A DNA stretch of 39,522 bases from a virus. The notes under the pieces were generated by a model, which saw nothing but the letters and a program-made list of their open reading frames with translations, did not search any database and was not told the origin of the DNA. A program made the position numbers and the translations under genes. Of the stretch, positions 20,916 to 24,063 are shown one piece after another. Position 1 is the first letter of the stretch. The number at the start of each line of letters is the position of its first letter. The stretch lies in IMG/VR virus record IMGVR_UViG_3300028675_000001, positions 1 through 39,522 of that record. The stretch is one strand, 5' to 3'.

Positions 20916-22031
20916 ATGCCATATATTAAGAACCCGATAGTTTACCCGAGTGGTTTTGTAAGTGTTGATACAGCGAAAATTAATACGAATTTTTCTATTT
21001 TAGCGGATGCTTTTTACAATTCAGATCCAGAAAGTAATCCAATTAATAGAGCGTGTTATATAGGAACAACTGCACCTACTGATCCCAAAATAGGTCAACT
21101 TTGGCTTGATATTTCTGTCAATCCACCAGTTTTAAAAGTTTATGATGGAATAAATTGGCAATCAAAGGTAAGTTTAGCTGATAGTGCGATTAATGCAACT
21201 AATGCAACTAATGCTACTAATGCTACTAATGCTACTAATGCAACTAATGCTAACTATGCAAATAATGCAGACAAAATAGATGGATTTCATGCAAGCCAGA
21301 CGCCAGCTCCGAATACGATACCTGTTGCTGATTCTTCTGGGAAGTTAAATACTAATTGGCTTCCTACTACGCTGAACGCCGACACCGTCGACAACTTCCA
21401 CGCAAGCCAAACACCAGCTCCGAATGTGATAGTGCCTCTTAATGCGAGTGGGGTTTTAGATTTGAGTGCGACTTATGTGAAGAGTAATGTTTATACATTT
21501 CGCAGAGTAGATTTGACGAATGCGACGAGTGATTACATGTTGCAGGTTGGGGAAGAAGCTTATATAAGTTTTAGTAATACAACGAGTGTTCCGTTGAGGA
21601 TTGCGACGCAGAGTGGGACTTTGTATAACTTGTATATTCATCTCACAGCACCATCTTTTGCCCAAGGTAATGGTATTACAGGAAGTGTGTTTTTAAATCC
21701 TAATAATACGAGTTATACTAATGCTTTTTATAGAGCTGGGGCAATATGGGATAGTGCGGGAAATGGTATGTCTTATGGTGGTAATATATCGGCTTTTGAA
21801 TTAAGTGGGAACCTATTTCCTGCCAACTGTTTTGCTATTGTTTATAATGAAACGAACCATAAATCAACAACAGCTATTTCAATTCATGGGGGACTGAACA
21901 CAAGTAATTATGCGAGGTGGCAACATATGAACTGTGTTTGGAATGACTACACTACAAACTGGACTTCGCTTGGGACTATAATTTTTCCAACACAATCTTC
22001 AGGATATATTTTAGTTAGGAGGTTAGCATAA
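20916..22031 (+). CDS. Tail fibre protein with a (Asn-Ala-Thr)n repeat
   Basis: Contains the GQLWLD...LKVYDGINWQ module and a duplicated HASQTPAPN..P...SG.L motif typical of fibre shafts. A GGAGGG SD lies upstream. Confidence 0.7.
   Translation: MPYIKNPIVYPSGFVSVDTAKINTNFSILADAFYNSDPESNPINRACYIGTTAPTDPKIGQLWLDISVNPPVLKVYDGINWQSKVSLADSAINATNATNATNATNATNATNANYANNADKIDGFHASQTPAPNTIPVADSSGKLNTNWLPTTLNADTVDNFHASQTPAPNVIVPLNASGVLDLSATYVKSNVYTFRRVDLTNATSDYMLQVGEEAYISFSNTTSVPLRIATQSGTLYNLYIHLTAPSFAQGNGITGSVFLNPNNTSYTNAFYRAGAIWDSAGNGMSYGGNISAFELSGNLFPANCFAIVYNETNHKSTTAISIHGGLNTSNYARWQHMNCVWNDYTTNWTSLGTIIFPTQSSGYILVRRLA
21192..21272 (+). repeat. In-frame 9-bp tandem repeat AATGCWACT, six units plus three degenerate units
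   Basis: Read directly. It encodes NATNATNATNATNATNATNANYANNAD. Confidence 0.9.
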
Positions 22032-22465
22032 TGAAAGTATGGGCTTATATTCACCCAGAACTAAAAACTCTTTGTTGTGCTTTATTACCTGAAGCAGTTC
22101 CTGAAGGAGTCTCCGCTGTAGAACTTGAGGTAGAAACTCCAGATGATGTAGTGCTTGATGAAAGCGGGCAAATCAGGATAAAAACAGAAGCAGAGAAACT
22201 TGCAGAAGAGAAGCAAAGAAAGCTTACAGAGCTCAAGAATTATGTAGCATCTTTACTTGCTTTAACTGATTACATCATCACGAAGATAGCAGAAGCTCAG
22301 ATACAAGGGGACACTGAAGAAGTAGAAGCCCTTAAGCAAAAATACTCAGCCCAACTTCAGCAAAGGAAAGCAATTCGAACCTGGAATGAGCAGATGAAAC
22401 AAGCTATAAGGAATGCGATAAGTTTAGAAGAGTTGAGGGGGATAGTAATTGAGTTTAAGGGATAA
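22031..22465 (+). CDS. Possible tail-fibre assembly/chaperone protein
   Basis: It lies immediately downstream of the fibre gene (TAATG overlap). It has a helical C-terminal half and is visibly more GC-rich than its surroundings. Confidence 0.4.
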   Translation: MKVWAYIHPELKTLCCALLPEAVPEGVSAVELEVETPDDVVLDESGQIRIKTEAEKLAEEKQRKLTELKNYVASLLALTDYIITKIAEAQIQGDTEEVEALKQKYSAQLQQRKAIRTWNEQMKQAIRNAISLEELRGIVIEFKG

Positions 22466-22811
22466 GTTTTTGAAGATTTGGAATAGTAAGTGGAATCCGT
22501 TAGGGAATTATGATGACCCAATACCATCTGACTGGTGTTTTGAGAGGTATGGTAAGGTAGGGGCTTATTTATATTGGTATTTTGTAAGGAATCCGCTTCA
22601 TAATTTTGACCGTTATTGGATAGGGACAGGAAGTTATCCAGCAGAGTGGAGGGTTTGGCACAGTAAGAGGAATTGGAATTTGATATTGCCATTTTTCAGC
22701 TATAGAGGAAAGAAGTGGGAAATGTATATAGGATGGAGACCAAAGATGCTTGAAGATGGGAGCATGGTTCAGATGTTTGGAGTTGCATTGAGGAGGAGAA
22801 AAGATGCCTAA
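22449..22811 (+). CDS. Hypothetical Trp-rich protein
   Basis: 120-aa ORF packed in the operon. Confidence 0.55.
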   Translation: MSLRDKFLKIWNSKWNPLGNYDDPIPSDWCFERYGKVGAYLYWYFVRNPLHNFDRYWIGTGSYPAEWRVWHSKRNWNLILPFFSYRGKKWEMYIGWRPKMLEDGSMVQMFGVALRRRKDA

Positions 22812-22956
22812 ACAACTTGATGATTGTGTGAAAAAAGTAATGAGAAAAGGTTATACTAAATCTGAGGCATATGCAATATGAGCCAAATCAACTGGCTGGG
22901 TCAGGGGATCTGGCGGTAAATGGGTTAAAAAGAAAAAGAAGAGAGGAGAGAAATGA
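22804..22956 (+). CDS. Small basic protein with an in-frame TGA at codon 26: MPKQLDDCVKKVMRKGYTKSEAYAI-TGA-AKSTGWVRGSGGKWVKKKKKRGEK
   Basis: GGAGGAG sits 5 nt before the ATG. The start overlaps the upstream stop. The frame stays open after the TGA (22879-81) for 24 codons and ends in an ATGA overlap with the next gene. Confidence 0.45.
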
Positions 22957-23228
22957 CCCCAGAAACAATAGTTTACTTATTGATTGCTGGATGTATTGGT
23001 ATATTGTTTAAAATAGTCTGGGATTGGTTAGTTGGGTTGAAGAGACCTAATGGTATAAAAGAAGTTTGCAAACAGAGAATGGATGTGTTTGATGATGAAA
23101 TTTGCAGGTTGTATGAACGATTAGATAAGATCGAAGAAAAATTAGAAGCAACATTAGATAAAATTAACAAAAAGATAGATGAGAAGTTTGAGCTATTGAT
23201 TAAGATGTTAACTCAAGATCGGTCTTAG
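22953..23228 (+). CDS. Membrane protein (one N-terminal TM segment plus a coiled coil), lysis-associated candidate
   Basis: Hydrophobic segment IVYLLIAGCIGILFKIVWDWLVGL. A GAGGAG SD lies upstream. Confidence 0.45.
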   Translation: MTPETIVYLLIAGCIGILFKIVWDWLVGLKRPNGIKEVCKQRMDVFDDEICRLYERLDKIEEKLEATLDKINKKIDEKFELLIKMLTQDRS

Positions 23229-23240
23229 GGAGGTGATTTC

Positions 23241-23510
23241 ATGAATGAATATTGGAAGCAATTTGGATGGCATTGGGTTATAATAATTTTTGGTTTGATA
23301 TTTTTTATTTCAGGAGTTATTGGTTTATTTTATGAGCCTTTTCAGTTTGTGTTTAAGAAGGTTTTTCTTTTGTCTTTGTGGTATGTATTTGCTTATTTGA
23401 CTAGGCTATTAAGAATAGGACATATAGATTGGGAGAGCGATGAGTGGGCTAAGAGGATATATTATATCGCTATTTTGCTGGGTAGTTCTATTGTGGTCTC
23501 AAGCGGGTAA
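23241..23510 (+). CDS. Holin candidate (three hydrophobic segments)
   Basis: 89 aa with segments WVIIIFGLIFFISGVIGLF, VFLLSLWYVFAYL and IYYIAILLGSSIVVS. It lies directly upstream of the muralytic gene. A GGGAGGTG SD lies upstream. Confidence 0.5.
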   Translation: MNEYWKQFGWHWVIIIFGLIFFISGVIGLFYEPFQFVFKKVFLLSLWYVFAYLTRLLRIGHIDWESDEWAKRIYYIAILLGSSIVVSSG

Positions 23511-24063
23511 AGCTTCTGAATGTGGGAGTTTATTACCAAAGGTAAGGCAAGCCTCTGAATTTGTGTTAGGGTTGGATTATCCTTATTGGTATAATATGGG
23601 GCAGATTGAGGCGGAGACTAATTGTTTATGGAAGACTTCTTTAGATGGTGTAGGTTCAGTGGGTTATGCTCAGTTGACAGAGAAGTTTTTACCTTTTTTG
23701 AATGAGAAGTTTCCAAATTGGAAGGTTAAGGGGCATATAGATCATTTTATGGCTCAAGCATATTTGATTAAGCAGTTGTTAGGTCAAGTAAGTTGTAAGA
23801 AGCTTTGGTGTGTGTATCAATGTTATAATCGGTCGTGCTGGAAGGTGAACAGGGAAGCGGTAAAAGTTGATTGTGTGTGGGAGAAAGCATTTGAGTTATG
23901 TAATGAGAAGTTTGCGGAGAATATTTGTGTTTGGAAGCGGGAAGGTGGATGTTTGCAGTGGCGAACGAGTTGTGATATAAATTACAATTATGGTTATAAA
24001 GTTTGGAAAAATGGGATAAAATATAGGAATGGAATTTTAGAGAAAACTTATAAATATTGGTAA
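23440..24063 (+). CDS. Endolysin candidate: lytic transglycosylase (SLT-like) with an N-terminal signal or anchor
   Basis: GQIEAET...DGVGSVGYAQLT resembles the SLT catalytic Glu and GLMQ region. The N-terminus is hydrophobic (YIISLFCWVVLLW). The start codon is uncertain because the ORF overlaps the holin by 71 nt. Confidence 0.55.
   Translation: MSGLRGYIISLFCWVVLLWSQAGKASECGSLLPKVRQASEFVLGLDYPYWYNMGQIEAETNCLWKTSLDGVGSVGYAQLTEKFLPFLNEKFPNWKVKGHIDHFMAQAYLIKQLLGQVSCKKLWCVYQCYNRSCWKVNREAVKVDCVWEKAFELCNEKFAENICVWKREGGCLQWRTSCDINYNYGYKVWKNGIKYRNGILEKTYKYW

Follow-up and report, generated by a model that had tools for sequence, protein, structure and literature searches.

A small phage gene with UGA at an invariant cysteine position and a linked downstream hairpin is a candidate selenoprotein gene

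The virus record IMGVR_UViG_3300028675_000001 of IMG/VR, from a hot-spring bacteriophage, carries a small gene whose reading frame is interrupted by a TGA codon at positions 22879-81, and the question raised by this locus is whether that codon ends the gene or is read as an amino acid. We analysed positions 1 to 39,522 of the record, a stretch of 39,522 nucleotides that is referred to here as the window. Our analysis favours the view, to which we assign a probability of roughly 0.72, that this is a selenoprotein gene in which the host machinery inserts selenocysteine (Sec) at the UGA in a manner dependent on SelB and on a selenocysteine insertion sequence (SECIS). An initial annotation, made from the letters of the window, had proposed either Sec insertion or readthrough at this codon, and the proposal is supported by the recurrence of the TGA in relatives, by an invariant cysteine column at its position, by selection on the frame behind it, by a hairpin that is linked to it and by the presence of Sec machinery in the likely host family. 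The features of the locus are the following:

22804..22956, plus strand: candidate recoded open reading frame (ORF), 50 codons long, MPKQLDDCVKKVMRKGYTKSEAYAI-U-AKSTGWVRGSGGKWVKKKKKRGEK, from an uncharacterised phage protein family of ~40-50 amino acids
22792..22798, plus strand: Shine-Dalgarno sequence GGAGGAG, read from the sequence, 5 nt upstream of the ATG at 22804
22825..22827, plus strand: TGT codon of Cys8, the first of the two invariant cysteines of the family, in predicted helix 1
22879..22881, plus strand: in-frame TGA at family position 26, the proposed selenocysteine codon, directly after ...SEAYAI
22954..22956, plus strand: terminal TGA, the ordinary terminator of the small gene, which overlaps the ATG of the next gene (22953-55) as ATGA
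22953..23228, plus strand: downstream gene of 91 amino acids from the ORF list, first of the lysis-region block; its homologue in Aquificae Conch Spring virus (ACSV) precedes a putative holin and a lytic transglycosylase

The start codon, the Shine-Dalgarno sequence, the start overlap, the TGA and the ATGA junction are all present where the initial annotation had placed them. The upstream ORF (22449-22811) ends in a TAA (22809-11) that the start of the small gene at 22804 overlaps. In the alignment of relatives, a purine-rich stretch resembling a Shine-Dalgarno sequence occupies the same site, and the A/GTGA overlap with the next gene is retained; judging from the ATGA overlap, the 91-residue gene is possibly translationally coupled to the small gene. 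Beyond the TGA at 22879-81 the same frame continues for 24 further codons (AKSTGWVRGSGGKWVKKKKKRGEK) to the terminal TGA at 22954-56, and within the small gene there is no in-frame start codon 3' of the first TGA. As the initial annotation had noted, TGA is a normal stop elsewhere: it ends 9 of the 46 long ORFs of the window (TAA ends 31 and TAG 6, at a window G+C content of 32%), as well as the small gene itself. We found no tRNA genes in the window, nor any SelA, SelB or SelD homologues encoded in it. Any recoding must therefore make use of host machinery. The same annotation had cautioned that a chance open stretch of 24 codons is not very improbable, and the window indeed has two further TGA stops with 21 and 24 open codons behind them, so the significance of the arrangement rests on its relatives rather than on the window alone. 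An ORF in the +1 frame (22871-23011) was also considered as an alternative product and was discarded: ACSV does not conserve its length, and the pattern of variation by codon position fits the main frame.

To gather relatives, we scanned viral contigs both with a protein guide and with a degenerate DNA pattern, and metagenome contigs with the same pattern. Together, the three scans yielded 51 distinct 60-nt segments starting at the position-26 codon, 14 of which have TGA and 37 TGT or TGC. Over 132 nt there are 16 distinct TGA-form genes, window included, which differ from one another at many synonymous sites, and the contigs that carry them come from at least seven metagenome datasets (Ga0080008, Ga0080004, Ga0334722, Ga0326760, Ga0315272, Ga0272449, and IMG/VR 3300034696). 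When the position-26 codon was left free in the search of viral contigs, only TGT, TGC or TGA was recovered, and a targeted search of viral contigs for TAA or TAG at this position found none. A profile search returned 399 family proteins, all of them annotated as hypothetical and without a Pfam domain, and in a 66-sequence alignment drawn from these both Cys8 and Cys26 are invariant. The TGA at 22879-81 is aligned with the cysteine of its homologues, which is the UGA/Cys pairing looked for in bacterial selenoprotein genes. The motif ...SAYAIC(T/A)KS.G..., which the initial annotation had given as the reason to expect a cysteine here, is real; homologues carry Cys exactly at the TGA column, and alignment establishes this column as invariant.

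The window is ~78% identical at the nucleotide level to ACSV (BK013345) around the locus, and gene order is shared. The DNA of ACSV has the same TGA and hairpin arrangement, MPEKLDRCVRKVMRKGYTKQEAYAI(stop)AKSTGWVRGPGGRWINKKAKKRKKK(stop), and TGBSV has an annotated homologue of 44 amino acids with TGT at the position-26 codon, ...SAYAICSTSTGWKRAKGGKWVKRK. In record BK013345 the small gene is unannotated and corresponds to a gap in the locus-tag series. A protein call by JGI for the ACSV copy at the end of a contig (P0011, L005:3001-3129) reads Trp at the TGA, giving AYAIWAKSTGW in a product of 41 amino acids. Annotation pipelines are inconsistent in their treatment of the small gene, which is called with Trp in P0011 and left out of BK013345.

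Two divergent family members were also recovered. One is a GC-rich distant relative (L102:341-484, Ga0180433_10143139) in which TGA occurs at Cys8 rather than at Cys26, MPKQLDR(stop)VQAV...AYAICAKSTGW, with an open frame, and in which a hairpin, UCGGUG-AUGGACG-CACCGA, begins 13 nt past the TGA. It may represent a second, independent exchange of Sec and Cys at the partner cysteine, though as a single contig it may also contain an error. The other (L116:998-1162, Ga0180301_10039244) has TGA at the Cys26 column in a divergent sequence, MPAILDRCVKGRIAEGYTKERAYAI(stop)AKSTGWKKAPGGGW..., and lacks the hairpin of the clade; its own candidate stem-loop reaches only -5.9 kcal/mol, and this outlier is ambiguous as to recoding.

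If the TGA were passed by ribosomes, the sequence behind it should be maintained as protein, and this is the pattern that we found. The initial annotation had named a closed downstream frame in relatives as an outcome that would speak against recoding, and in every TGA relative the frame 3' of the TGA is open and under strong purifying selection. Of the 18 sites at each codon position in codons 27-44 of the 16 TGA forms, 3 first, 1 second, and 14 third positions vary, and the same pattern (2, 1, and 10) is obtained when the hairpin is excluded. The ratio of nonsynonymous to synonymous polymorphism (pN/pS) among these forms is 0.06 for codons 27-44, compared with 0.28 for codons 2-25. The concentration of variation at third positions and the low pN/pS indicate that the sequence behind the TGA is selected as protein, in a frame that runs through the TGA.

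A conserved hairpin follows the TGA at a short distance. Its parts, together with an alternative structure described in the initial annotation, are located as follows:

22895..22914, plus strand: conserved SECIS-like hairpin of 20 nt, GCUGGGUCAGGGGACCUGGC, from the RNAalifold consensus of the TGA forms
22895-22902, 22903-22906, and 22907-22914, plus strand: 5' arm GCUGGGUC, loop AGGG, and 3' arm GAUCUGGC of this hairpin in the conserved register
22882..22914, plus strand: alternative hairpin, the minimum free energy (MFE) fold of the window only, which has its 3' arm in common with the conserved hairpin

In the RNAalifold consensus of 13 TGA forms, numbered with the U of UGA as 1, G17-C24 is paired with G29-C36 over 8 bp around an invariant AGGG at nt 25-28, which gives the clade consensus GCUGGGUC-AGGG-GAYCYGGC. 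No cell of the consensus stem is broken (0/104), and all one-sided substitutions (9/9) keep pairing. At four-fold degenerate sites only pair-preserving bases occur inside the stem, whereas transversions occur outside it. Across all TGA forms of the clade, the predicted energy of the isolated stem-loop lies between -10.0 and -14.9 kcal/mol, and the window has the weakest stem (-10.0 kcal/mol) owing to a C-to-U change at 22909 (nt 31). Because this change weakens the conserved stem, folding the window as a single sequence favours the hairpin of the initial annotation. That hairpin does exist and approximates the MFE fold of the window (-16.2 kcal/mol, z = -2.5; an equally good fold arose in 5 of 200 shuffles), but its register is not the one conserved across relatives, as most other TGA forms and the consensus fold differently.

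To compare the conserved hairpin with known elements, we applied the published criteria for bacterial SECIS (bSECIS) by hand (PMC13188914). This model specifies a loop of 3-9 nt with a G at its first or second position and then G or U, an upper stem of 4-16 bp, a distance of 16-37 nt from the UGA, and an MFE of -7.5 kcal/mol or lower (PMC13188914). The phage hairpin, with a 4-nt loop reading A-G-G-G, a stem of 8 bp, a distance of 21 nt and energies of -10.0 to -14.9 kcal/mol, falls within every one of these bounds. The initial annotation had placed the loop of its own hairpin near the lower bound of SECIS spacing; this does not apply to the conserved loop, which starts 21 nt past the UGA. The phage hairpin also fits the description of bacterial SECIS elements as a stem of 6-8 bp with a conserved loop G ~20 nt 3' of the UGA (PMC4605307). 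The pattern TGGGTCN{3,6}GAYCYRG, devised post hoc, matches the window once, at 22897-22913, and has no match in 100 shuffles. Searching positions 22700-23100 against Rfam with E values up to 10 gave no match, and a consensus scan of 22300-23400 found no terminator-like hairpin, so the conserved hairpin is not a terminator. A looser hairpin pattern also matched elsewhere in the phage loci, but these matches were rejected as a terminator-like palindrome or as accompanying out-of-frame TGAs.

The hairpin and the TGA occur together. All 13 TGA forms scored have the hairpin and none lacks it, while the Cys forms divide into 5 with and 16 without it (Fisher p = 1e-5, uncorrected for relatedness). 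In the Cys forms the median energy of the stem is +9.1 kcal/mol, and only 4 of 37 reach -7.5 kcal/mol or lower. The codons for W-V-R-G read GUC AGG GGA (then YCU) from the valine onwards in TGA forms and GUU CGU GGY (then AAA) in most Cys forms. In a tree of the gene and its downstream flank, built with codon 26 and the hairpin masked, forms with TGA and hairpin are interleaved with hairpin-less TGT forms (window and L061, L112 and L062, ACSV and L095), which indicates mosaicism or repeated switches. The hairpin is therefore tied to the UGA and dispensable in Cys forms on mosaic backgrounds. The hairpin-bearing Cys forms fall into one subclade with stepwise loss of structure: it is intact in L003 and L131, decays through L114 (-7.8 kcal/mol), L127 (-2.4 kcal/mol), and L130 (-0.5 kcal/mol), and in L132 retains its stem around an AAAA loop. 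Such a series would be expected from relaxed constraint following a change from Sec to Cys.

Because the window must borrow its decoding machinery, we also examined its probable hosts. The 'Pyrovirus' group of hyperthermophilic Aquificae viruses comprises TOSV, TGBSV, ACSV, and AJCSV, and these relatives of the window virus have been assigned to Thermocrinis/Aquificae (PMC7689252). The Aquificaceae are likely the host family of the window virus, and tRNA-Sec is present in this family (Hydrogenobaculum excepted) and in the Desulfurobacteriaceae (PMC4227106). Aquifex aeolicus has a selB-selA-selD cluster. Starting from the A. aeolicus SelD structures (PDB 2yye and 2zod), we proceeded to SelD homologues and from these to contigs, and recovered homologues from Aquifex, Hydrogenivirga, Hydrogenobacter, Thermocrinis minervae, and many metagenome-assembled genomes (MAGs) of hot-spring Aquificaceae. 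A scan of genome contigs with A. aeolicus SelB gave 80 loci, all from other phyla and none from Aquificae.

The host selD gene itself contains an in-frame UGA (VR[AS]SG(stop)A...) in all eight of the distinct sequences examined, namely those of A. aeolicus, T. minervae, H. thermophilus, Hydrogenivirga, and four Aquificaceae MAGs. Each of the eight has a hairpin 9 nt past the UGA with the form NU[GA]GGUC-CG[GU]N[GU]-GACCU[AG]N. The phage hairpin, (G)CUGGGUC-AGGG-GACCUGG(C), has 7-nt arms identical to those of the selD SECIS in an abundant MAG lineage (L230-232), an identity that includes two G-U pairs, and a GGUC/GACC core is common to the phage hairpin and all eight host sequences. Because the reading frames of the phage and host hairpins differ, the likeness is one at the level of RNA. 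All eight Aquificaceae selD genes (L226:1-3936, which is A. aeolicus AE000657, L220, L222, and L227-L233) have been called from a start past the in-frame UGA, and the deposited SelD proteins therefore lack the Sec-containing N-terminus (M[VE]ELLKLVR[AS]SGU...).

The predicted structure of the protein gives position 26 a possible partner. A confident AlphaFold2 model (pLDDT 85.6), made for the closely related Cys protein P0005 together with 65 family members, has two helices (residues 3-15 and 19-30) followed by a small beta-hairpin (32-34 and 40-42), and ends in a tail rich in Lys. The centre of the turn is nine residues away from both Cys8 and position 26, and because these two residues are equidistant from it in an antiparallel helical hairpin, they should face each other. 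The obvious reading of this residue spacing is that Cys8 and Sec26 could form a selenylsulfide in place of a disulfide, or of a shared metal site, in the relatives. A Foldseek search of the model against the PDB gave no match with E below 0.8 and no functional lead, and for the read-through protein the Pfam search gave only a sub-threshold chance match and PHROGs only matches with E values of 0.05 or higher. A 26-residue module, MPxKLDRCV...SAYAIC, also occurs as the N-terminus of larger phage proteins that are unrelated to one another (L024, L048, L060, L015, and L052), with partners that include DUF2213 proteins and an Acb1 anti-CBASS 2H-phosphoesterase, among others. Because it is fused N-terminally to unrelated proteins, the module behaves as a portable one. 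Since the same module heads DUF2213 and other phage proteins, our guess is that the small protein belongs to a module associated with morphogenesis or with nucleic acids.

In the mechanism that we propose, a ribosome with UGA-26 (22879-81) in place would have the hairpin at 22895-22914 sitting at its mRNA entrance, where host SelB carrying GTP and Sec-tRNA(Sec) would bind it as at host selD and fdhA. Sec would then be inserted at UGA-26 and translation would run for 24 more codons, until the terminal TGA (22954-56), which has no hairpin, would terminate it normally. The product would be the two-helix hairpin (residues 3-15 and 19-30) with its small beta-hairpin and Lys-rich tail, and a Cys8-Sec26 selenylsulfide would be possible. 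We infer the binding of SelB, the insertion of Sec and the Cys8-Sec26 bond from the comparisons described here.

Several observations weigh against Sec insertion. Some Aquificales, namely Hydrogenobaculum and the Hydrogenothermaceae, have no tRNA-Sec (PMC4227106). The UGGGU of the phage 5' arm is already imposed by the Trp-Val codons, the phage loop AGGG has 4 nt where the host CGGNG has 5, and the spacing between UGA and stem is 5 nt longer in the phage than in host selD. No pair of the hairpin has undergone a fully compensatory double change; the substitutions are all switches among G-C, G-U, and A-U pairs at synonymous sites, and the predicted free energy of the isolated window hairpin is about zero at 75-85 °C. 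Retention of the hairpin in five Cys forms is compatible with a second role for it. Finally, when a covariance model trained on host selD (R1) was run on the window and on 20 phage loci, the phage hairpin was not among its hits, and the reciprocal model trained on phage sequences (R2) ranked the host selD SECIS sites first, but with an E value of ~5. In R1, flanks and loop positions fixed by the coding of selD carry most of the weight. Mimicry of the host SECIS by the phage is no more than suggestive, as the likeness is not significant in covariance-model searches.

The strongest rival to Sec insertion is programmed readthrough that is independent of Sec, in which a near-cognate tRNA (Trp, or Cys/Arg) would decode the UGA at low frequency, with the hairpin possibly acting as a stimulator. 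Such readthrough would yield a mix of a 25-residue peptide and the full-length protein. This is the situation at the UGA of the phage Qbeta coat gene, which some ribosomes pass by inserting Trp, producing a C-terminal extension that is the A1 protein. A conserved UGA, an open downstream frame, and a downstream hairpin are all compatible with readthrough, and the covariance-model searches give no significant sign that the hairpin is specifically a SECIS. However, the UGA stands where every aligned homologue has Cys, so that Trp or Arg would replace an invariant cysteine; the position is occupied by UGA and never by UAG or UAA; and the loop composition, stem length, and spacing of the hairpin fit the bacterial SECIS model, with arms that match those of host selD. 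In addition, we know of no established bacterial mechanism by which a hairpin stimulates readthrough. The sequence evidence favours Sec insertion over plain readthrough, which we regard as unlikely.

A second rival holds that the TGA is a true stop, that the 25-residue peptide is the sole product, and that the region downstream is kept as RNA structure or for loading ribosomes onto the gene of the lysis region. The Shine-Dalgarno sequence and start of the downstream gene do lie in or beside the second half of the small gene, and the hairpin kept in five Cys forms may have a role of its own. Against this, the variable sites outside the hairpin (2, 1, and 10 by codon position) and the pN/pS of 0.06 reveal selection on protein rather than on RNA, and a peptide of 25 residues would lack one invariant cysteine and half of helix 2. 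We consider a true stop quite improbable. Still less probable is that TGA is reassigned or suppressed during infection, through a Trp or Gly code or a suppressor tRNA encoded outside the window. Stop-codon recoding occurs in other phages, and the Trp in call P0011 of the ACSV copy agrees with such a reading. The window, however, does not show the whole-genome reassignment of TGA (code 4 or 25) of recoded phages: TGA ends 9 of the 46 long ORFs and the small gene, no tRNA gene was found in the window, and a general sense reading of TGA leaves both its restriction to the Cys column and the linked hairpin unexplained. An artefact or decay, raised by the initial annotation as a sequencing error or nonsense mutation, would take only a single TGY-to-TGA change in a genome where open stretches of 24 codons are common enough, but a sequencing or assembly error or a recent one-off mutation is effectively refuted because the TGA recurs in 16 distinct sequences from at least seven metagenome assemblies with purifying selection downstream.

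An extension of Sec insertion, which we hold to be doubtful, is that the UGA and its SECIS act as a translational gate tied to the selenium and SelB status of the host. Passage through UGA-26 could then set the dose of the full-length protein and, by coupling at the ATGA, that of the lysis-region genes, because bacterial Sec insertion is inefficient and the stop of the small gene overlaps the next start. The Sec and Cys alleles on their mosaic backgrounds would, if such a gate exists, be alternative regulatory settings within the viral population.

The genes around the locus follow the same order in the window and in ACSV: tail-fibre genes, the small gene, the 91-residue gene, a putative holin, and a lytic transglycosylase (as annotated in ACSV). 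Between the gene of 144 amino acids and the small gene, the window has an ORF of 120 amino acids with a TTG start (22449-22811, plus strand) and no PHROG match. This ORF is missing in ACSV, where the small gene adjoins the homologue of the 144-residue gene, and the difference amounts to a one-gene indel beside the recoded gene. Further upstream, within the ORF at 20916-22031, a 9-bp tandem repeat, TAATGCAAC, is present in 8.8 copies (21191-21269, plus strand); it encodes the run NATNATNAT... in a tail-fibre-like protein and is possibly a length-variable region. Downstream, the listed ORFs at 23241-23510 and 23440-24063 (plus strand), homologues of the putative holin and lytic transglycosylase genes of ACSV, share 71 nt, and the true start of the latter is probably further downstream.

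Among known systems, the closest are bacterial selenoprotein genes such as E. coli fdhF and Aquificaceae selD and fdhA, which share with the phage gene an in-frame UGA aligned with Cys and, just 3' of it, a hairpin in the coding sequence with a small G-containing apical loop ~20 nt from the UGA. In one Aquificaceae selD SECIS the likeness extends to the stem arms CUGGGUC/GACCUGG, apart from the loop and spacing differences given above. Those genes are cellular, whereas the phage gene is viral, encodes only 50 amino acids, and belongs to a family that would be new as a selenoprotein family and has no known enzyme function. The Qbeta coat gene resembles it as a phage gene whose UGA is passed by a fraction of ribosomes, but it has neither the Cys homology nor a required SECIS-like hairpin, while the UGA considered here replaces an invariant cysteine and is tied to a hairpin. 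Poxviruses provide examples of viral UGA codons decoded as Sec by host machinery, in a GPx1-like protein of molluscum contagiosum virus and a GPx4-like protein of fowlpox virus, and the fowlpox SECIS is located inside the coding region, as is the SECIS-like hairpin of the phage gene (PMC8310308). In contrast to the phage gene, which belongs to a native family with a switch from Cys to Sec in some lineages, the poxvirus genes were captured from hosts and use eukaryotic SECIS elements of the SBP2 type. The phage lineages, unlike poxviruses, would have built a bacterial-type SECIS from their own codons.

In a review of recoding, poxviruses are the only viral cases of selenoproteins (PMC8310308), and phages are not mentioned in the 2026 review of prokaryotic selenoproteomes, BSepDB, or deep-Sep (PMC13188914, PMC13326102, PMC12013277). 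Genes resembling tRNA-Sec have been described in huge phages with no selenoprotein named (PMC10747093). The 'Pyrovirus' ACSV shares the TGA and hairpin and TGBSV has the Cys form, and the recoded gene is mentioned neither in the paper describing these viruses nor in their GenBank records (PMC7689252). Our search of the literature, an incomplete set, turned up no account of a selenoprotein encoded by a phage, but this absence is no proof of novelty. Mechanistically, the gene would follow the known bacterial scheme; what would be new is its bacteriophage carrier, a selenoprotein family of 50 amino acids, and the coexistence of Sec and Cys alleles.

If confirmed, the small gene would be a case of a selenoprotein encoded by a virus of bacteria, and it would mean that a phage can exploit the SelB pathway of its host, using its own codons to form a copy of the host SECIS. 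It would also capture the switch between Sec and Cys in progress, through forms with TGA and hairpin, TGY and hairpin, TGY and a decaying hairpin, and TGY without a hairpin. A gene of 150 nt would then offer a compact natural system for studying the evolution of SECIS elements and their recognition by SelB in hyperthermophiles. Because gene callers split the small gene, drop it or translate it with Trp, similar phage selenoproteins may be systematically missed.

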